In this document: positions 2,891 through 35,167 of the stretch, in pieces
Numbering within the stretch: the stretch's first letter is position 1
Layout of the letters: each line of letters opens with the position of its first letter
Virus record (IMG/VR): IMGVR_UViG_3300032053_000019
Coordinates: 34,440 to 98,439 of that record
From: a virus
DNA: 64,000 nt
Direction: 5' to 3' (one strand)
Made by a program: the position numbers and the translations under genes
The notes under the pieces: model-generated
Seen by the model: only the letters and a program-made list of their open reading frames with translations
Databases searched by the model: none
Told to the model about the DNA's origin: nothing

Positions 2891-3174
2891 TCATTGAACT
2901 TCGTAAGACGTACAGGATCAAAGGAAACTCGTCGTACTTCAAGGAGAAGTACGCGACTTCCAATCCTTTGATCATCATTGAGGGACCAGCCGAAACCGTC
3001 TTCGGCAGTGGTATACATCTGGCCTCAATGAGTGGCAACTGGGCCGCCCGCCTCTTCCTGGAGCGGGTGGTGGCCGAAGATCCCCCAGGCAAGACAGCCT
3101 ACTACGGTCACGAGGTGGTTACGGGCCTGGGGGAGTGCGTGTTCGATGAGGAACTAGAGGAGGTGACTCAGTGA
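2887..3174 (+). CDS. hypothetical protein
   Basis: RBS AGGAGG, coupled ORF. Confidence 0.7.
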   Translation: MIIELRKTYRIKGNSSYFKEKYATSNPLIIIEGPAETVFGSGIHLASMSGNWAARLFLERVVAEDPPGKTAYYGHEVVTGLGECVFDEELEEVTQ

Positions 3175-3473
3175 GAACCTGGAAGAAAAAGTTTCAGCAG
3201 TATTGCTGGGATCTGATCATCTATCGGATCTATCGGGAGGGACTCAAGTTCAAAGCAGACAATGTAAAGAAGGTAGCATCGAAGGTTAGTCTGACCACCG
3301 GCTACCTGCACATGATCATTCGTTCCGGACGAGATGGATTCAAGCCAGATTGCTCTACTATCCATCAGATTCTGGAGAAGTATGATCCTGTCGAAGATAC
3401 AAGGTTCATGTTCCATCCGAAAAACATCTGGTCCCGAACCAGAGCACGGAAGGAAGGAGCTGGGCTCAGATGA
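3171..3473 (+). CDS. hypothetical protein
   Basis: GTGA overlap, RBS GGAGG. Confidence 0.6.
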   Translation: MRTWKKKFQQYCWDLIIYRIYREGLKFKADNVKKVASKVSLTTGYLHMIIRSGRDGFKPDCSTIHQILEKYDPVEDTRFMFHPKNIWSRTRARKEGAGLR

Positions 3474-3862
3474 AAACCATCCCGATCAGTAAGTTCGGAA
3501 AGGACCACTGGTCACTCCTGGCCTACATCGGGTGCCGGTGCGTGGACAATGAAGGCACCTTGAACAAGGAGCATCTTCGGGTCAATATCAAGACCCATCC
3601 TCAGCACAGTCACCGGGGAACCCAGAATTTCCTTGATGTGTTTCCCTATCCCACACGTCTTGCTGAAGGAAAGATCGCCGCTAAGGGGCATGACGATTGG
3701 GATTGCTTGGACGATCTCGAGAAGGCTGGCTTGATCAAGCTACATGGTACGGGACTCAATCCCGTTTATGCCATGACAGTCAAGGGGTGGGAGGTGGATA
3801 GTCAGATCCGCCAATTCAAAGCCACCGGTGGTACCTTCGCGACCTTCAAGTATGAGGAGTGA
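3470..3862 (+). CDS. hypothetical protein (possible winged helix)
   Basis: ATGA overlap; CLDDLEKAGLI...YAMTVKG. Confidence 0.65.
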   Translation: MKTIPISKFGKDHWSLLAYIGCRCVDNEGTLNKEHLRVNIKTHPQHSHRGTQNFLDVFPYPTRLAEGKIAAKGHDDWDCLDDLEKAGLIKLHGTGLNPVYAMTVKGWEVDSQIRQFKATGGTFATFKYEE

Positions 3863-4068
3863 TCATGCTCCCCGTTGATCAATTAGGCGGACTGGCCGGG
3901 ATCCCACAAGGGTCACGATGGGAGTTCCTGGGCGATCTCAAGACTCGGCAGATGAGCTATCCTATACATCCTCTCTGCCGCGCCTGCGCCAGCGACTGCA
4001 AGGTTCACGACGCCAAGGGGCTGATCGTGTTCGTCTGCCATGCCTTTAAGAAACCTAACCATAGATAA
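3859..4068 (+). CDS. hypothetical Cys-rich protein
   Basis: CRACASDC motif, coupled ORF. Confidence 0.5.
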   Translation: MIMLPVDQLGGLAGIPQGSRWEFLGDLKTRQMSYPIHPLCRACASDCKVHDAKGLIVFVCHAFKKPNHR

Positions 4069-4070
4069 AG

Positions 4071-4146
4071 GGGAATGGTGGAGAAGTGACAAAGGCAAAG
4101 ACATCCGAAAGGATAATCAACTCATCATCACCAATCCACCATTCCT
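4071..4146 (+). ncRNA. guide-like stem-loop unit U0 (orphan)
   Basis: Stem GGAATGGTGGA/TCCACCATTCC enclosing GACA-AAGGCAAAGA-CATC-CGAAAG-GATA-ATCAACTCAT-CATC; same geometry as units at 5725-7342. Confidence 0.8.
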
Positions 4147-4164
4147 ATTTTTTAAAGAAATCTC

Positions 4165-4193
4165 TTGATTTTTGTTTTGAGTTGACTTATAAT
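4165..4193 (+). promoter_or_regulatory. sigma70-type promoter upstream of helicase / RNA-guided locus
   Basis: TTGATT-17bp-TATAAT. Confidence 0.75.
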
Positions 4194-4204
4194 TATGACT
4201 CAAT

Positions 4205-4308
4205 GAGGAAGGAGGCACGATGTCAGTCCTATTAAGTATCACCGCTAATGCGGAATTGACTTTCTCATCTTTGCCTCCTCAGGGATTGCTCGTGCCTCCT
4301 ATCCTTCC
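4205..4308 (+). ncRNA. degenerate guide-like unit in 5' leader with two alternative closing stems
   Basis: GTCC-TATTAAGTAT-CA-CCGCTAATGCGG-AA-TTGACTTTCT-CATC; 5' arm GGAGGCA(CGA) can pair with TGCCTCC (4272) or TCGTGCCTCCT (4290). Confidence 0.5.
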
Positions 4309-4326
4309 TTTTCTTCGGAGTATAGT

Positions 4327-5736
4327 GTGACCTATAAGATCACTCTCGGCAACGTCTTCTCAGAAATGAATGACTACCCAACGGAACTGGAGCAAAGACT
4401 TGCTATTGCCCATCCCAATTTTTGGTTTAGTCCACAATACAAAATGCATGTATGGGACGGGAAAACCCACTTCCTTAAACTAACTCCGACAGTTCACTTC
4501 CCCACGGGTCTCCTTTTCATCGTGGAGGAGTTCCTCAAAGAGAAGGGTCTGGACTATGAACTCATTGATCCTCGCATGCCGATCAAGTATTCCGATGGCA
4601 TGTTAGCTCCAGTTTCCCCCGATCTACTGAATGGTATTACCCTCCGGGAGTATCAGATTACCGCGATTGAGGAAGCAATCCGAAAAAGGCGGGGCGTTCT
4701 TGAACTGCCCACCGGGTCAGGCAAGACCGAAGTAGCCGCAGGTATCATTAAACTCCTTAATCGGCCCACACTCTTTTTGGTACACACGCAGGACCTCTTA
4801 CATCAGACCGCCGAACGATTCACCAACCGCCTTGACATTCCGATTGGCAAGATCGGGGATGGTGAATACGATATAGAAAAACGATGCGTTGTTGCGACCA
4901 TTCAATCTTGCCATGCCCGCCTCAAGTCGAAGGAACAAGACAAGCGAACTGAGATAAAACAATTACTGGAGCGGGCCGAAGTAGTCTTCCAGGACGAAGT
5001 GCACCACGCCAGCGCGAGTACGTGGTACAGCATCGGTCAGAAAACCTTGTCGGCAAGGTTCCGATTCGGATTGTCCGGAACTGTCCTTCGCCGAGACGAA
5101 CTTTCAAACATGAAGATGTTAGCTCTCTTCGGTGAACCGATCTATACTAAACGGACAATGGACTTAGTTGACGATGGATATCTAAGCAAGATTCAGATCA
5201 CTATGATTGATAATCCTGAAGTGGTAGAGGGTACTTCCTGGTCGGACATTTACTTAAACGGTATTGTCAAGTCTGAGTCCCGGAATAAGATGATAGTTGA
5301 TCAAGCCGAGACGGCTTTCCGAGAGAATAAACGAGTTCTACTACTGATTAGGTATATTGATCATGGAAAGACCCTAACTCGTCTGCTTAACGAGCAGAGG
5401 AGTATTCCTACCGTATTCTTGAGTGGACAAAGTGGACGTGATGATCGTAAGGAGCGAAAAGAAGAGTTTAATGAGAATGGAAACTTCATTTTAATTGCCA
5501 GTACAATTTATGATGAAGGGATTGATCTCCCCGAAGTGAATGTCTTAATCATAGCCTCTGGTGGATTAAGTGAAGTCAAAACAATACAAAGAGTAGGACG
5601 TGGTTTGAGAAAGAAGAAGGATGGTTCAACTCTTCAAGTCTTTGACTTTGAGGATAGTTCGGATTATTTGATCAAGCATTCGAAGGAGCGCAAACAAGTT
5701 TATATTCAGGAAGGATTCTTAGGTGTGGACGAGTAA
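4327..5736 (+). CDS. superfamily 2 DNA helicase (UvsW-like)
   Basis: LPTGSGKT Walker A, DEVHH, GLSGT, EGIDLP, QRVGRGLR. Confidence 0.92.
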   Translation: MTYKITLGNVFSEMNDYPTELEQRLAIAHPNFWFSPQYKMHVWDGKTHFLKLTPTVHFPTGLLFIVEEFLKEKGLDYELIDPRMPIKYSDGMLAPVSPDLLNGITLREYQITAIEEAIRKRRGVLELPTGSGKTEVAAGIIKLLNRPTLFLVHTQDLLHQTAERFTNRLDIPIGKIGDGEYDIEKRCVVATIQSCHARLKSKEQDKRTEIKQLLERAEVVFQDEVHHASASTWYSIGQKTLSARFRFGLSGTVLRRDELSNMKMLALFGEPIYTKRTMDLVDDGYLSKIQITMIDNPEVVEGTSWSDIYLNGIVKSESRNKMIVDQAETAFRENKRVLLLIRYIDHGKTLTRLLNEQRSIPTVFLSGQSGRDDRKERKEEFNENGNFILIASTIYDEGIDLPEVNVLIIASGGLSEVKTIQRVGRGLRKKKDGSTLQVFDFEDSSDYLIKHSKERKQVYIQEGFLGVDE

Positions 5737-5967
5737 GATACTGGCAAGAGCGTCCTTAAGGACCAAGGTAGATTCGTCTGCTCGTCCACTTCCTTTGTAT
5801 AATCAAAGACGAGTTAATGATCAAGGGAATGAACACCCCCAGTGGCATGAGTCGGACCAGTCGTTAACTCGTCCGCTTTGCATACGAGAACGAAGAGGGG
5901 TTGGTAAGTCAAATAGAGCATCAGCTTTTGCGTTAAAGACTGGAACAACTACTAATCCTTTCTCTTC
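5725..5967 (+). ncRNA. array of three guide-like stem-loop units U1-U3 (5725-5789, 5808-5873, 5892-5967)
   Basis: Each has an 11-13 bp outer stem of unique sequence with G-U pairs, enclosing 4nt-N10-14nt-N10-4nt. Confidence 0.88.
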
Positions 5968-5986
5968 CATTTTATAAGGAGTTACT

Positions 5987-7105
5987 ATGAGTATCTATGC
6001 CATTGATTGGCACACGAAGAAAGAGATTCCAATTTATGACGGGAAGAAGATCAAGAAGATTCCGAACTCCCCTTTCTCTATTGCCGAATGGGCAAAGGGA
6101 CTTGAAAAGAGAAAGCATATCTTTCTCTTTGAGGCTGGTGGCGGTGACTTCATGAAGATTCTTCTTCACCGTCAAGGGCATACTGTCCTCACCATGCCTG
6201 GTATACATACGAAGCAGTTTCGTGATCGCATTGATGTTGAGAAGACAGACGATACGGACGTGTCACTGATCTACGAATTATATACAAAGTGGGTGGAGGA
6301 GACAGTGGGTCGAGCATCTTCGGGGACAACCGTCCGGTCATCTTCCCACCCACTTTCCTTTTACCCCTTCTCCGAACTGGACTGCACCATCTCATCACTT
6401 CGACTTTTTGTTCGTCGACGCGACTTGGTTCAGGAAGAACGGATACGAGAGAACAACCGGGCTCTGATCTTCAACCTGACCTACTCTCTAACGAACACAC
6501 CAAAGAAAGAAATTGATAAAGTTCAGGAACTTCAAAAGACACGAGTTGAGGATTATAAAAAGGAAGAGGCAAGTCTGACCAAGCAGGTCAATCGTATGCT
6601 AGGCACTCTACCAATCTGGACTGACAAGTGGAAAAAGATCAAGGGGTTTGGCCCTAACATTGTTGGGGGTTTGATCGCCGAACTTGGTAGATGCCAAGCT
6701 CAGACCAGGGCCCAGGTGCGAATGTTCACCAGTATGGTTCCTCGTGAAGCGAATCTTACTGAGAGTGGAAAGCGTCGGCGCAACTCGAATCGTATTCGTG
6801 GGTTGCTATATGATGCAGTTGAGCAGATCATCAAGCAGAAGACTCCGGGGTGGAATGAATGGTACTACAGGTTAAAGGAAAAGTATGCCTCACTTCATCC
6901 TGACTGGTCCAAGGGCAAGGTGGATAACTATGCCCGTCGTGTGCTGAAGACACAACTGGCCATTGAATTCTGGTCTGATCTTCGGCACTATGGTATGTTG
7001 CCAAACAGTGGGGGAGTTAGTGTGACAAACAAACTTACGGTTTCAAAACTAAGAGTTTCCTCATCCGCCTCCTCCTCCCTTTCTTCTACCGAGGCACAAG
7101 TATGA
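5987..7105 (+). CDS. IS110-family-derived RuvC(DEDD)-coiled coil-Nop/Tnp20 protein (TasR-like RNA-guided effector candidate)
   Basis: D7 (YAIDW), E49 (LFEAG), D88/D91 (KTDDTD); IKGFGPNIVGGLIAELG helix-hairpin; SMVP...ESG...NSNRIRGLLY; WYYRLK...ARR; RBS AAGGAG. Confidence 0.85.
   Translation: MSIYAIDWHTKKEIPIYDGKKIKKIPNSPFSIAEWAKGLEKRKHIFLFEAGGGDFMKILLHRQGHTVLTMPGIHTKQFRDRIDVEKTDDTDVSLIYELYTKWVEETVGRASSGTTVRSSSHPLSFYPFSELDCTISSLRLFVRRRDLVQEERIRENNRALIFNLTYSLTNTPKKEIDKVQELQKTRVEDYKKEEASLTKQVNRMLGTLPIWTDKWKKIKGFGPNIVGGLIAELGRCQAQTRAQVRMFTSMVPREANLTESGKRRRNSNRIRGLLYDAVEQIIKQKTPGWNEWYYRLKEKYASLHPDWSKGKVDNYARRVLKTQLAIEFWSDLRHYGMLPNSGGVSVTNKLTVSKLRVSSSASSSLSSTEAQV
6286..6356 (+). ncRNA. guide-like unit U4 embedded in the effector ORF
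   Basis: AAAGTGGGTGG/CCACCCACTTT stem enclosing GACA-GTGGGTCGAG-CATC-TTCGGG-GACA-ACCGTCCGGT-CATC. Confidence 0.85.
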
Positions 7106-7342
7106 TCAAGATTGGTAAGTCAATGACACTTTCGTCCTACGAGATAGACGCAGTATCGGCTACCAATCTTGATCTCTTTTGTAAACAAGATGGGTTGGAA
7201 AGACAAGGGAGTTTCCATTTCTTTAAACATGGTGTAGCGCATCTTCTAATCCATCTTTTCTCTGCTAACAATCTTGAACCAGTAAGACCAGTTCACCTGC
7301 ACCACCATAGGCAATGTCAAAGCCATCTACTGGTTCAAGATT
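7010..7342 (+). ncRNA. array of four guide-like units U5-U8 (7010-7079 inside ORF tail, 7104-7174, 7187-7257, 7270-7342)
   Basis: 14-15 bp stems in U6-U8 (e.g. GATCAAGATTGGTA/TACCAATCTTGATC, AATCTTGAACCAGTA/TACTGGTTCAAGATT), weaker stem in U5; all enclose the same 42-nt core geometry; period 83-95 nt. Confidence 0.88.
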
Positions 7343-7360
7343 TTTCTATTAGGAGACACC

Positions 7361-8239
7361 ATGAGTTATGAGTCAGCAAGAAAACTATTGGGAAAAGTAC
7401 TTGATCGTGCCTGGTTGGTTGAGGTCCCAGGAGCAAGCTATAGGATACTGATTGCCTCTACTACCAATCTTCTCGAACGATTCGCTAGAGAGATTGGTAT
7501 TCCAATATCCTTTGCTGGAGGTTCCGAACGTTACCCCATGTCACCATCTATTCGTGTTTGGAAACAAACCCTCTATGACGCCTTGCAAGGAGGCGCTGAG
7601 CTGATCTCACAAAAGGACTTTGATCATATCTTTTGTGATCAGTGGGGATGCGGTATTAGTATTAACGGAAAGTATTATAGTCCAAAAGAGAGACCGGGCA
7701 TGGATGAGTGCCCGATTGATCAATTAAAAGAGGAGGTCCAAAAAATGGACAACACACCGGTTGATCTGAAGTTGGTTCATCGGTTCCAACTTCGGCCACA
7801 ACTTCGAAAGCTTTTGAGTGACCGAGCAAGGGAGGAGGTGGCAAAGTACCTTATGCCCTTCCGTGAAGGACGAGCCTCAGCAAAAATGTTTCAGGTATTG
7901 TTTGGTCGAAAGAGGAAGAAGGCAGACATAGGTGACGAAGCTGAAAAGGTTGCTCTCTTGGCTAGGGTTACTACAGGAACCGTTGATCGAGCAAAGAGTG
8001 GGCAACGTTGCTATACCAAGAACGGAGTGAAAGTATACTATGACATGGAAGTCACCGCTTCGGTGGGCCTTCTTTACGCGATTGGTATTCTCGAAAATCG
8101 TTCCATACTTAAAAAGTATGAGGACATGCTTTCCCCCACTCGTCGCCCCAAAGTTACTACTGACCGACTCTATACCAAAGCTGAGGTCGAAGAGGCAGTT
8201 GCGATTGCTTTAAAACAACTTCACGAGGGAAAAAAGTAA
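7361..8239 (+). CDS. hypothetical protein
   Basis: 292-aa ORF, RBS AGGAG, immediately after array. Confidence 0.75.
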   Translation: MSYESARKLLGKVLDRAWLVEVPGASYRILIASTTNLLERFAREIGIPISFAGGSERYPMSPSIRVWKQTLYDALQGGAELISQKDFDHIFCDQWGCGISINGKYYSPKERPGMDECPIDQLKEEVQKMDNTPVDLKLVHRFQLRPQLRKLLSDRAREEVAKYLMPFREGRASAKMFQVLFGRKRKKADIGDEAEKVALLARVTTGTVDRAKSGQRCYTKNGVKVYYDMEVTASVGLLYAIGILENRSILKKYEDMLSPTRRPKVTTDRLYTKAEVEEAVAIALKQLHEGKK

Positions 8240-8242
8240 CGG

Positions 8243-8812
8243 ATGAACTTCTTTACCGCCGACCCACACTTCAACCACGGGAACATCATCCGGCATTGTA
8301 ATCGTCCCTTCCGAAATGTCGAGGAGATGAACTCGACGATGATCATGAACTGGAATTCCAAAGTTCGTCCTGGTGATGTTGTCTATGTGATAGGTGACTT
8401 CGTGTGGGAGGGGTTTGGTGAGATCATTCCCAAACTCACTGGGGAGATTCATCTGATCCCAGGCGGGCATGACGAGCGACTACTCCAGTTCTTGAAACGA
8501 AACCCAGGACAGTCAAACCGGGATTGGCAGGAAAGACTAATTATACATCCTCCGATTCTGGAGAAAAGTTTTCCGATGGGAGGTCAGAATGAAAAAGTAA
8601 GAATCATTATGTGCCATTACAGCATGCGAGTTTGGTCGGCGAGTCATTATAACTCATGGCATTTGTATGGCCATAGTCACGGACGCCTTGCCGGTCAAGG
8701 TAAATCCTTTGACGTAGGGGTAGATGCCAATAACTTTTTCCCCTTGTCATTGGTTGAGGTTGCTGATATAATGAATCAACGACCTGATAATTTTAATCTC
8801 GTCCACAGATGA
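8243..8812 (+). CDS. calcineurin-like metallophosphoesterase
   Basis: ADPHFNH, IGDF, GGHD, YGHSH, DVGVD. Confidence 0.9.
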   Translation: MNFFTADPHFNHGNIIRHCNRPFRNVEEMNSTMIMNWNSKVRPGDVVYVIGDFVWEGFGEIIPKLTGEIHLIPGGHDERLLQFLKRNPGQSNRDWQERLIIHPPILEKSFPMGGQNEKVRIIMCHYSMRVWSASHYNSWHLYGHSHGRLAGQGKSFDVGVDANNFFPLSLVEVADIMNQRPDNFNLVHR

Positions 8813-8821
8813 GGAGGAACA

Positions 8822-9142
8822 ATGCCCAAAGCAAAAAAGGTAACCAAAGTAAAAGTACCAAAGCAATTGGTACAAGGAAAGAGAAGTACCGAGCGGCAGG
8901 AGTTTTTCAATAAACATGCCCTTACGATCGGATCCGTCTATGCCGAAGTCAAGTCGTGGAAGGCGACCTCGGCAAAAACAAAACTCCCCCAGTTAATGGT
9001 TGGTTATGTCTTGGCCCGCCTGCTTCCCGATCTGATCAAAGACAAGTATATCCAACGTATGGTCAGTTGTGACTGCTCGCCTGAAGCGGTGATCGCCCCG
9101 ACTCCTCCTGTAGAGGAACAGCCAAAGGCAGAGTCAGTCTGA
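8822..9142 (+). CDS. hypothetical protein
   Basis: RBS GAGGAGG, 106 aa. Confidence 0.7.
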   Translation: MPKAKKVTKVKVPKQLVQGKRSTERQEFFNKHALTIGSVYAEVKSWKATSAKTKLPQLMVGYVLARLLPDLIKDKYIQRMVSCDCSPEAVIAPTPPVEEQPKAESV

Positions 9143-9561
9143 TGGTTGAACTCTTCTATGAAGCAAAGTTCGATGCGGCCCACCGGTTAATGCACCACGA
9201 AGGCAAGTGCAAGAATCTTCATGGTCATACTTGGAGGGTCTCAATCGGAGTAGCAGGGAATCCAGATCCCAAGACGGGAATGGTAGTGGACTTCGCTATC
9301 CTAAAACTCTCGGCGATCAGTTTGGTCATGCACTACTTTGATCATGCTACCATCCTAAACTCCGCAGATCGTGAGTTGTGGATGGCTCTTGAGAAATACA
9401 AGTTGTTTCTCATTGATGGTGAACCCACCTGCGAGAATCTGGCCCGGATGATCTTCGATAAGATCAAAGAAAAACTTGACTGTTCACTTTTCACTTTCGT
9501 CCTGTCGTCAGTTACTGTGTGGGAATCAGAGACTTCCTCGGCCCGTTACTGCGGGCTCTAG
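9142..9561 (+). CDS. queD: 6-carboxy-5,6,7,8-tetrahydropterin synthase
   Basis: FDAAHRL, CKNLHGHTW, GMVVDF, FDH, PTCENLA, VWESE. Confidence 0.95.
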   Translation: MVELFYEAKFDAAHRLMHHEGKCKNLHGHTWRVSIGVAGNPDPKTGMVVDFAILKLSAISLVMHYFDHATILNSADRELWMALEKYKLFLIDGEPTCENLARMIFDKIKEKLDCSLFTFVLSSVTVWESETSSARYCGL

Positions 9562-9589
9562 TATAAAATCTCGAACAAGGAGTAAACAG

Positions 9590-9805
9590 ATGAGTAAGGT
9601 ACTGACACCAAGTCAACTGGTGGAGGAACGAGTGGGGCTTCTTGAAGGCGACTCACTCCCAACAAAGGTCATGAAGGAAAACTTAGTGGCTTTCCTTCAT
9701 GAGTTTTCCTACTTCACTGTCGCGGAGAAGCAAGCAGTTTTTGAGCATCTTGAGCTGGTCTCCCCCAATGCTAGAAGGGCCTTAGTAAGAGTATTCTCGA
9801 TCTGA
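9590..9805 (+). CDS. hypothetical protein
   Basis: RBS AAGGAG before ATG 9590. Confidence 0.6.
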   Translation: MSKVLTPSQLVEERVGLLEGDSLPTKVMKENLVAFLHEFSYFTVAEKQAVFEHLELVSPNARRALVRVFSI

Positions 9806-10149
9806 TCGTGAAGGAATACAAAGACACTCTCGGCATTATTAACGAGATTCCTGGTGAGTGCATTGATACCAGAAACCGAATCAAGGCCTGCCGAGAGTTC
9901 CTTTTTCGCAAGTTACAGGAACAGGAAAAAGGTACTAGTGATAAAAAAGTTCCTATGGAAAATTGTGATGGTCAATAACAAGGTGGTGTTTAATTATAAT
10001 AAGGCCTCATTGGGCCCTGATGGGCTCATCTTGTTTATAGGGATTCTATATTTTCTATTTTCTCAATGGGACACGATAGAGCGCTTTAGCGCTCTAGCGG
10101 GACCCAGTCCGAAACGGACCACGCGGCAAGGCCGCGTACAGGAACTTTA

Positions 10150-26273: not shown

Positions 26274-27191
26274 ATGATGGATACCATTACTTCACTGCTA
26301 TTGATTGACGGAAACAATCTAGGCTGGATGGCATACGGGCGGTCCCCTCTATCCTATAAGGATCAGCGAACTGAGGTGATCAAGATAGGTCTGATGATGT
26401 TACGGAACTACCTTGAACTTTTCAGTCCTGACCGACTAGTGGTGGTATGGGATGGTGGGCATGATCAATCCCGTACTTCCATATATCCTGAGTATAAGAA
26501 GCGGGATAAGGAATTGACAGAGGCGGAGAAAAAGGAACGCGACCTTTTCTTTGATCAGTTGAACCGACTTAAGGATAGCATTACCAAGTTGGGAATTGAT
26601 CAAGTTCGTGTACGAAGGCGGGAGGCAGATGATGTTATCTTTAGTCTACTGAATCCCGCACTACGAAGTGAGGAGCAGGCCTTCATCATCTCGACGGACG
26701 AGGATATGTTTCAGTTGGTTGCTCACTATCCTGAGGTAGCTATCTACTCACCGATCAAGCAGATACTCTATACCAAGGAGGAGATCGAAACAAAACTAGG
26801 CTTCCCGGTTGGGTACTACCTTTATTATAAAGCCTTAGTTGGGGACTCCAGTGATAACCTTCCTGGAGTTTATGGTATTGGACCGAAGAAGGCAAAGGTT
26901 GTCATTGAGTATTTACAAAGCGGAGCCCCCACTGCCTGGGATGAGAAGCATAAAAAACTAAAGGAAACTTTGGATAGTCAATACGAAACTTATAAAAAGA
27001 TGATTGATCTTATTGAGTTTCGTTCTATTCCGAAGGAGGAGATCGCTGAGGGAGTTACCCCTGGAACGGATGAGGATATCCTGACAAACATTTACGAGAT
27101 CGCCAACCAGTATGGCTTTGATCGTGTGCTTGAAAATGTTGGAGGATTCATGGGTCCCTTCCTGGCCTTTCAGAATCGGAGAAAAGCATGA
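26274..27191 (+). CDS. 5'-3' exonuclease / flap endonuclease (T4 RNase H-like)
   Basis: LIDGNN, WDGG, YPEYK, EADDV, STDEDM, GDSSDNLPGVYGIGPKKA. Confidence 0.93.
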   Translation: MMDTITSLLLIDGNNLGWMAYGRSPLSYKDQRTEVIKIGLMMLRNYLELFSPDRLVVVWDGGHDQSRTSIYPEYKKRDKELTEAEKKERDLFFDQLNRLKDSITKLGIDQVRVRRREADDVIFSLLNPALRSEEQAFIISTDEDMFQLVAHYPEVAIYSPIKQILYTKEEIETKLGFPVGYYLYYKALVGDSSDNLPGVYGIGPKKAKVVIEYLQSGAPTAWDEKHKKLKETLDSQYETYKKMIDLIEFRSIPKEEIAEGVTPGTDEDILTNIYEIANQYGFDRVLENVGGFMGPFLAFQNRRKA

Positions 27192-34227: not shown

Positions 34228-35167
34228 TCAATTGTTCCCAAAAGGACAGTGGGCGAACTCTGACGAGTTTGTCATTCCATGTCCCTACTGTCCTGACGGA
34301 GATCATCCAACTCATAGTCACTGCTTCCTAAATCCTGAGAAAGAGGTATACCATTGCTTTCGTTGTGGTGCTAGTGGATCACTTCGTGCACTACTTCGGG
34401 ACTCTGGTGTTGACGAAACTATCATTGAGGAAATGCGATTAGGTGCTCCGAAGCCGGATGCTTTTCTTCACCAGCCCATTCCGTTTGACTTCAAGCCGAT
34501 CGGCCTTTCTGGTTTGTTTTCAGAAAGGAAAGCAGTTGAGTATTTGAAGGCACGGGATCTTGACGAAAGTGCCTTTACCAAGTACGACATACGATATACG
34601 AATACGGGCAGGTATGGTGGGCGTGTGATCATTCCCATCTATGAATCAAGACGGATGGTTTGTTTCGTTGCCCGTGCGGTATTCAAGTCCCTTTACCCAA
34701 AGTATCTTTACCCTCATCGTGGGGAAACTATACTGACAGCCGGAGAGGCGATCTTTGGTTACGAGGGGTACTCAACAAAGAAGGTGCTATTGGTCGAGGG
34801 CGTTTTCGATGCGATCTCGGTCAGGAAGAAACTAGGTACGGATGAGTTCAATATTATGGCAATCTTGGGCAAGTCACTGAGTAACTATCAGGCGGCGAAG
34901 TTGTGGCGATTACCAACTAGTGCCTTTTATATCATGTTGGACAAGGATGCCCGGGTGGATGCCATTACCCTGGCAACGAAGTTACTGAGGACAAGACGTA
35001 ATGAGAAGATCGAAATTCGTATCTGTTTTATACGTTCAAAAGACCCTGCTGAGGCGTCCGTAGCGGACTTGACCAAAGCAGTGGTGGAGGCAGAGTCGGG
35101 GTTTGATGATCTAGCCGCTGGGAAATTGTTATTGGAGACTTTTTGTGTACGACAAAGAAACGATTGA
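34220..35167 (+). CDS. DNA primase (Zn-binding + TOPRIM)
   Basis: CPYC..H..CFRC, RVIIP, PKYL, VEGVFDA, LDKDA, KDP. Confidence 0.9.
   Translation: MLDQLFPKGQWANSDEFVIPCPYCPDGDHPTHSHCFLNPEKEVYHCFRCGASGSLRALLRDSGVDETIIEEMRLGAPKPDAFLHQPIPFDFKPIGLSGLFSERKAVEYLKARDLDESAFTKYDIRYTNTGRYGGRVIIPIYESRRMVCFVARAVFKSLYPKYLYPHRGETILTAGEAIFGYEGYSTKKVLLVEGVFDAISVRKKLGTDEFNIMAILGKSLSNYQAAKLWRLPTSAFYIMLDKDARVDAITLATKLLRTRRNEKIEIRICFIRSKDPAEASVADLTKAVVEAESGFDDLAAGKLLLETFCVRQRND

Follow-up and report, generated by a model that had tools for sequence, protein, structure and literature searches.

Results

Organization of the tasR locus

The locus was found in IMGVR_UViG_3300032053_000019, a virus genome of 98,439 bp that originates from a sediment metagenome and is rated complete by CheckV. 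All positions refer to the window, by which we mean the whole analysed stretch of 64,000 nucleotides (positions 34,440 to 98,439 of that record). A single copy of the tasR gene is present in the genome, directly preceded by a helicase gene, and nine hairpin units, named U0 to U8, are found upstream of, within and downstream of tasR on the same strand (Table 1). The best promoter-like site is a match to the consensus only, and the number of promoter-like sites at the locus did not exceed that in shuffled sequences. Since the helicase gene lies on the same strand as the array and tasR, and no terminator-like site was found between 3800 and 7600, a single plus-strand transcript most likely covers the helicase gene, both flanking arrays and tasR. 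A tblastn search of 50,697 deposited phage genome records gave no relatives, and an IMG/VR search with the single TasR protein gave no relatives.

Table 1 Features of the tasR locus (window coordinates).
Feature	Position	Strand	Description
U0	4070..4147	+	Single unit ahead of the helicase gene; loop 4090-4127; 60.4 bits with the covariance model
Best promoter-like site	4165..4193	+	TTGATT, 17 nt, TATAAT; between U0 and the helicase gene; consensus match only
Superfamily-2 helicase gene	4327..5736	+	Pfam ResIII, Helicase_C, weak UvsW_N; directly upstream of the array and tasR
U1	5719..5796	+	First unit of the upstream array; loop 5739-5776; helicase stop codon in 5' arm
U2	5802..5879	+	Loop 5822-5859; shared layout, found with the covariance model
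U3	5890..5967	+	Loop 5910-5947; G-U pairs in stem
tasR	5987..7105	+	372-aa TIGR-associated RuvC-Nop protein; DEDD residues D7, E49, D88, D91
U4	6282..6360 (hairpin 6286-6356)	+	Inside tasR; loop 6303-6340; residues 100-124
U4 spacers	A 6306-6314; B 6330-6338	+	
U5	7005..7083 (hairpin 7010-7079)	+	3' end of tasR; loop 7026-7063; residues 342-365
U6	7101..7178	+	Loop 7121-7158; 5' arm overlaps tasR stop codon; fold z -5.1
U7	7184..7261	+	Loop 7204-7241; shared layout, found with the covariance model
U8	7268..7345	+	Loop 7288-7325; last unit, just before next gene (start 7361)

Common architecture of the nine hairpin units

All nine units, located between 4070 and 7345 on the plus strand, consist of variable arms around a loop of exactly 38 nt with the layout 3+9+2+10+3+9+2, which we read as box C (3 nt), spacer A (9 nt), box D (2 nt), a mini-hairpin (10 nt) where positions 1 and 10 as well as 2 and 9 pair, box C' (3 nt), spacer B (9 nt) and box D' (2 nt). 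The box C letters are CAA, CAG or CCA in most units and TAA, TAG, CAT or TAC in some. Box D, assigned by position only, is CA in 12 of the 18 instances and CG in the remaining 6, compared with UG/CG in published systems; since CA predominates, the C-G pair that closes box C against box D is often a C-A mismatch. Arm sequences vary between the units, but complementarity is kept: among the seven units outside tasR, 14 of the 18 pairs change on both sides, and none of 500 shuffles equalled the observed values. The stem of U3 contains G-U pairs and can therefore fold only as plus-strand RNA.

The spacing is approximately 83-88 nt within the flanking arrays, the downstream one of which begins with U5, and 95 nt from U5 to U6. 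Perfect stems of at least 10 bp with loops of 20-80 nt occur 11 times in the window versus about twice in shuffled sequences, with 6 of the 11 falling between 4072 and 7342, and a more tolerant stem scan added three further units in the region of U0 to U8. By eye, seven of the nine units carry CUU at or just past the base of the stem. An Rfam scan of positions 3000-10000 (E ≤ 1) returned no family.

A preliminary description of this DNA had proposed that U1 and U6 overlap the stop codons of the helicase and the effector, and this is indeed the case, with the helicase TAA (5734-5736) inside the 5' arm of U1 and the tasR TGA (7103-7105) sharing 2 nt with the 5' arm of U6. The spacers were described there as 10 nt long, which the shared layout of the nine units corrects to 9 nt, and the number of units between 7104 and 7345 had to be revised to three. 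An 89-aa open reading frame at 7102-7371 consists throughout of U6-U8 and their linkers; it matches no family and most likely does not represent a gene.

The effector is a TasR protein

A phmmer comparison of the effector with the PDB sequences gave a single significant match (E 2.5e-11), namely 9mty or TaTasR, the 331-residue TIGR-TasR of a Thermoproteota archaeon (Faure et al., Science 2025, PMC12045711). The match falls in two stretches, residues 2-99 against 6-98 and residues 190-329 against 150-290 of the target, and makes D7 the equivalent of D11 in TaTasR. An AlphaFold2 model built from 22 relatives (pLDDT 87, pTM 0.82) was used for a Foldseek search, which again placed 9mty on top (E 2e-12, TM 0.68), followed by IS621 and ISCro4 and then by TasH. 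In the alignment of the 22 relatives D7 is invariant, and E49, D88 and D91 are kept in at least 90% of them. With the four DEDD residues thus conserved, the RuvC nuclease site is apparently intact.

The relationship to the IS110 recombinases raises the question whether the locus could instead be an IS110-type mobile element, where an RNA-guided recombinase would be accompanied by hairpins acting as bridge-RNA-like guides or marking the ends of the element. Besides the second-best fold matches to IS621 and ISCro4, the protein gives weak matches to the Pfam domains DEDD_Tnp_IS110 (PF01548, 21.1 bits versus a cut-off of 29) and Transposase_20 (PF02371, 19.8 bits versus 21.3), both below the curated cut-offs, and its C-terminal domain contains a Ser-Gly pair, S264-G265. 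But TasR is the best match in both sequence and fold, the Ser-Gly pair is not conserved, the locus has nine separate dual-spacer units instead of a single two-loop bridge RNA, and the gene is present once in a complete phage genome, with relatives that occur in unrelated contexts together with arrays of their own. An IS110 element is accordingly a very remote prospect. The Ser-Gly pair belongs to a Glu-Ser-Gly-Lys motif (6772-6777, residues 263-264) that resembles IS110, is seen in the query only and lies in a short insertion within the C-terminal domain, most relatives having KKGN.

It is clear from these comparisons that the open reading frame at 5987-7105 is tasR and not an IS110 transposase. 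An effector with a RuvC domain and guide units, as the preliminary description had it, was thus right in kind, and the RuvC domain, the Nop domain and several dual-spacer palindromic units of a TIGR-Tas system are all present.

U4 and U5 belong to the unit family

Of the nine units, U4 and U5 lie in frame within the tasR open reading frame at the positions first described for them. A covariance model was built from the seven units outside tasR, leaving both U4 and U5 out of the model, and the window was searched on both strands with the filters off. U4 was recovered with 36 bits (E 1.6e-4) and U5 with 26.1 bits (E 0.012), the latter being the lowest score of the nine units, while the best unrelated match in the 64 kb on both strands reached 15 bits (E 1.6) and the minus strand of U4 reached 11 bits. 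When the search was extended to the whole 98,439-bp genome, U0 to U8 were the only nine matches with E ≤ 1, all of them on the plus strand. The stem of U4 has 11 perfect base pairs and reaches approximately 16 bp if one bulged A and a single G-U pair are allowed, and the unit folds with -31 kcal/mol.

The stem of U5 is weaker and interrupted (z -1.5), and 19 of 200 shuffles fold as well, which could be taken to mean that the in-gene hairpins are accidental palindromes in coding sequence. Since the interrupted stem is no better than that of many shuffles, the membership of U5 depends mainly on its exact loop layout. Against chance, however, stand the exact 38-nt layout in both U4 and U5 and the recovery of the two units, and nothing else in 98 kb, by a model that is independent of them, so that an accidental origin of the hairpins is next to negligible. 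The in-frame location of U5 is a separate matter and could be due to accidental read-through, as about one in six random stretches of 38 codons is without a stop codon.

U4 and U5 occupy tolerant positions in the protein

U4 encodes residues 100-124, TKWVEETVGRASSGTTVRSSSHPLS, and U5 encodes a Ser-rich tail. In the protein, U4 corresponds to an in-frame insertion of 24 codons, in the loop between the DxxD helix (residues 88-112, the last helix of the RuvC domain with D88 and D91) and the coiled coil. Among the 22 aligned relatives, residues 101-124 are gapped in P0006-P0014, P0020, P0023, P0024, P0028 and P0029, and the nearest relatives carry inserts at the U4 site that vary in length and sequence. 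A long C-terminal extension at the U5 site is found only in P0003, P0015 and P0028 among the aligned homologues. The tasR frame reads through U5 as a disordered tail and stops in U6.

Insertion of the two units at tolerant positions had been suggested from the sequence, with an alignment of homologues and the disorder in an AlphaFold model as ways of checking it. The alignment bears this out, as the segment around residues 101-124 is an insertion that most homologues are without. With respect to disorder the suggestion stood in part: residues 343-372 of the tail have pLDDT values below 50 and the U4 stretch has lowered confidence (block values of 83, 60 and 81 over residues 101-130), but residues 101-112 of the U4 peptide are modelled as an extension of the helix with a pLDDT of approximately 83, so that the peptide is not wholly disordered. 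The tolerance of the U4 site is further borne out by the peptide of a related strain (see below), which differs in sequence and still leaves the frame open.

The loops of U4 (6303) and U5 (7026) each start with the second base of an ACA codon for Thr and therefore share the same codon phase. In this phase the TGA contained in the GTGA before the U5 box C is out of frame. Two Thr residues spaced 8 residues apart are found in the query, in the strain variant and in P0003 and P0009, with the rest of the insert being different in the latter two. This spacing follows from the ACA codons that are forced by two box C motifs 24 nt apart, and P0003 and P0009 may accordingly carry embedded units at the U4 site, as judged by this Thr footprint in the protein only. 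Some of the relatives are partial. P0009 (127 aa) and P0018 (126 aa) end inside or just past the insert equivalent to U4, and P0017, P0019, P0022 and P0025 match only the C-terminal half of TasR; these six may represent contig ends, or tasR genes split at a unit into RuvC and Nop parts.

The interior of U4 has been exchanged in a related strain

A second sediment run (X2) contains 22% of the words of the window; no RNA run containing this sequence was identified. Two of its contigs cover parts of tasR in the region 5700-7400, one at 6167-6304 (18 differences in 138 nt) and one at 6339-6882 (46 differences in 544 nt), and the flanks of the U4 loop in the contigs of X2 (and of a further run, X4) are 87-92% identical to the query. 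Between the two contigs, the interior of U4 (6305-6338, 34 nt) is replaced by 34 other nucleotides, as read from the overlapping unaligned ends of the contigs, and a contig from X4 has the same last nine letters as the X2 variant. The variant is thus read from the loose-end letters of short assembled contigs. Its loop, CAA-AAGTCCGCT-TA-TCCTTAGAGA-CAA-AAGGCAAAA-CA, is again 38 nt long and keeps both box C motifs, the mini-hairpin and box D'. Compared with the query, 5 of the 18 spacer positions are identical, which is the level expected by chance, as against 10 of 16 for the other positions, and at a divergence of 10%, 13 or more changes in 18 spacer positions would arise with a probability of 5e-10. 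In place of VGRASSGTTVR the variant encodes KVRLSLETKGK.

The upstream array seems to have fared likewise. A contig of 271 nt from X2 aligns with both the helicase 3' end (5711-5740) and a segment shortly ahead of tasR (5944-5981), at the same distance as in the query, and the 203 nt in between (5741-5943, U1-U3) do not align at 80% identity, so that the whole upstream array appears to have been replaced unit for unit. An X2 contig on 7060-7096 (37 nt with 7 differences, T/C-rich) is too short and divergent to inform on U5. In the X2 variant, spacer B of U4 (AAGGCAAAA, 6330-6338) shares the 7-mer AGGCAAA with spacer A of U0 (4093-4101), for which we estimate a rough chance of ~0.02, and spacer A of U1 (TGGCAAGAG) also resembles it. 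The shared 7-mer hints that spacers move between units or are aimed at related targets.

We regard the strain exchange as the strongest evidence that U4 is kept as a guide unit and that its peptide is free to vary. The in-gene hairpins might alternatively regulate the tasR message itself, by giving entry to an RNase or by pausing translation, and they are indeed stable and part of the message, U4 with its -31 kcal/mol in particular. A regulatory hairpin would, on the other hand, have no need for two variable 9-nt segments flanked by the motifs of the intergenic units, nor for the wholesale exchange of spacers between strains, which makes a purely regulatory role very unlikely. In the strain comparison the spacers of an in-gene unit turn over with frame and scaffold kept, which bears on how TIGR arrays gain spacers. 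We know of no spacer-acquisition route for TIGR systems as yet.

In-gene units in homologous loci

The analysis was extended to 44 metagenomic loci of a sister clade, 35 of which were subjected to a conservative motif and stem scan. The units in these loci have the form stem, CTA, 9 nt, TG, short loop, C-N-R, 9 nt, TG, stem, and because of these other motifs (CTA ... TG) the covariance model from the query found no significant unit in the 44 loci. The scan gave 60 units in the 35 loci, 23 of which are inside tasR. The homologous genes have one to three units within the gene at the U4 site, and the in-gene units cluster at aa 105-159, corresponding to the U4 site 15-50 residues past the DxxD motif, and at aa 43-57. 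Short homologues of approximately 300-310 residues have no in-gene units. Neither the helicase nor five other flanking open reading frames were found as conserved neighbours in the homologous loci; the relatives sit in unrelated contexts, each with its own arrays. Together with the swapped interior of U4, the one to three units at the same site in the relatives agree with the proposal in the preliminary description that the units behave as cassettes.

These data also bear on whether U4 and U5 could be relics, swallowed by the frame through an in-frame insertion (U4) or the loss of an earlier stop codon (U5) and persisting as a neutral linker and tail that no longer act as guides. The degraded stem of U5 and its score, the lowest of all, would fit such a history, as would the small protein-level constraint on the encoded peptides. 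Decay would be expected of a relic, but in U4 a stem of 16 bp, both box positions, the mini-hairpin and a loop of exactly 38 nt are preserved, the spacers of the related strain are new although its motifs and length are unchanged, well-formed units are present at the U4 site in many relatives, and an in-gene tigRNA has been shown experimentally for BlTasA of Bifidobacterium longum by small-RNA sequencing (Xu et al., bioRxiv 10.64898/2026.09.09.750476, 2026-09-11). On balance we consider it unlikely that the two units are relics. We infer that U4 and U5 are probably expressed, processed and loaded as guides.

Spacer targets

The own genome was searched for targets of the nine units and the variant with both orders of the half sites, and the best matches were 13-15 of 18 positions, the same as for shuffled spacers. 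The best own-genome match of U5 (15 of 18 at 26953-26970) was equalled by a fraction of 0.067 of the shuffles, uncorrected for 20 tests, and self-targets that had been proposed for U4 and U5 were not above chance in the 18-nt shuffle test. Words of 6-12 nt from the centre of the predicted targets were neither depleted nor in excess in the own genome. The targets probably lie in other DNA.

At 4264-4276, the minus strand has 13 contiguous nt identical to U0 spacer A and, continuing from it, to the first part of the reverse complement of spacer B, the two overlapping by 1 nt. This sequence is located ~120 nt downstream of U0 in the helicase leader; by a rough count, about one such match is expected by chance, and the strict 18-nt test for U0 gave nothing. 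A QueD-like 6-carboxytetrahydropterin synthase is encoded at 9142-9561, at the start of a putative cluster for 7-deazaguanine DNA modification. If the phage DNA is modified by 7-deazaguanine, this could shield the phage from its own TasR.

Discussion

Collectively, the data point to a TIGR-Tas system of the stem-loop class in a phage, with the nine same-strand hairpins as the tigRNA genes of tasR, and we assign this reading a probability of roughly 0.8. TasR would act as a small dimeric RNA-guided DNA-targeting protein, and each unit would supply two 9-nt spacers, one pairing with each strand of an 18-bp DNA target. Dimers of TasR would bind the box motifs of the folded units, whereupon cellular RNases would trim at the stem bases. 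Since two units lie within the reading frame, the tasR transcript would be both mRNA and guide precursor, and trimming of U4 would necessarily cut the tasR message. The use of one sequence as both mRNA and guide is consistent with the small-RNA sequencing of BlTasA (Xu et al. 2026).

A more tentative and rather doubtful step is the negative autoregulation put forward in the preliminary description, in which release of U4 would destroy the mRNA and thereby limit the synthesis of TasR. A link between tigRNA maturation and Tas translation has been raised speculatively before (Xu et al., 10.64898/2026.09.09.750476). A still bolder combination would have the maturation of U4 destroy the message and thus set the ratio of nuclease to guides by a negative loop, a dedicated mechanism swap loop cassettes with the frame preserved even in genes, and a stem-loop TasR that still cuts DNA, the phage DNA perhaps being protected by 7-deazaguanine; that all of this holds together is improbable.

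TIGR-Tas systems, which are compact and need no PAM, bind and cut DNA under the guidance of RNA, and little is known of their natural biology. With its complete 98-kb phage genome and apparently active nuclease, the present locus would be a clean natural case of a translated guide RNA and a simple setting in which to test whether guide maturation is coupled to effector synthesis as proposed.

The stem-loop form of the TIGR array was described by Faure et al. 2025 (PMC12045711) and Xu et al. 2026, and stem-loop tigRNAs within tas coding sequences, typically in disordered regions, have been reported (Xu et al., 10.64898/2026.09.09.750476). In-gene guide units are therefore already published, and the present locus is a well-documented case and not their discovery. 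As in the stem-loop systems from the TIGRFinder survey of Xu et al., the units are upstream, downstream and inside of tas, the frame is unbroken and the regions are poorly ordered. CUU is also often found there at or after the stem base, which these authors identify as a processing boundary (10.64898/2026.09.09.750476). The differences are that BlTasA is without a nuclease and the solved stem-loop proteins PateTasR and CsTasR are catalytically dead, whereas the present TasR has all four DEDD residues; that the in-gene site is here the junction between RuvC domain and coiled coil and not the wedge loop; that box D is mostly CA and a fixed 10-nt mini-hairpin separates the spacers; and that the host is a 98-kb sediment phage. 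Features that may be specific to this locus are a stem-loop TasR whose DEDD site is intact, the insertion at the junction, the CA box D and the frame-preserving exchange of spacers.

TaTasR (9MTY) shares with the present protein the RuvC domain, coiled coil and C-terminal Nop domain, the conserved acidic site and the dual 9-nt spacers. It differs in that its 36-nt tigRNAs come from a regular dual-repeat array outside the gene, in contrast to the long stem-loop guides found here, and the present TasR is ~40 residues longer as a result of the insertion and the tail encoded by the guide units. The IS110/IS621 recombinases (8WT6, 8WT9) have a related fold and a gene-adjacent guide RNA with paired internal loops, whereas the present locus lacks both a conserved catalytic serine and a single bridge RNA with two loops, and shows no sign of mobility.

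The eukaryotic box C/D snoRNAs, which are guides of the same ancient RNP family, are likewise embedded in host protein-coding transcripts and released by processing. They reside in introns, and their release spares the coding sequence, whereas the guide in tasR is itself translated.
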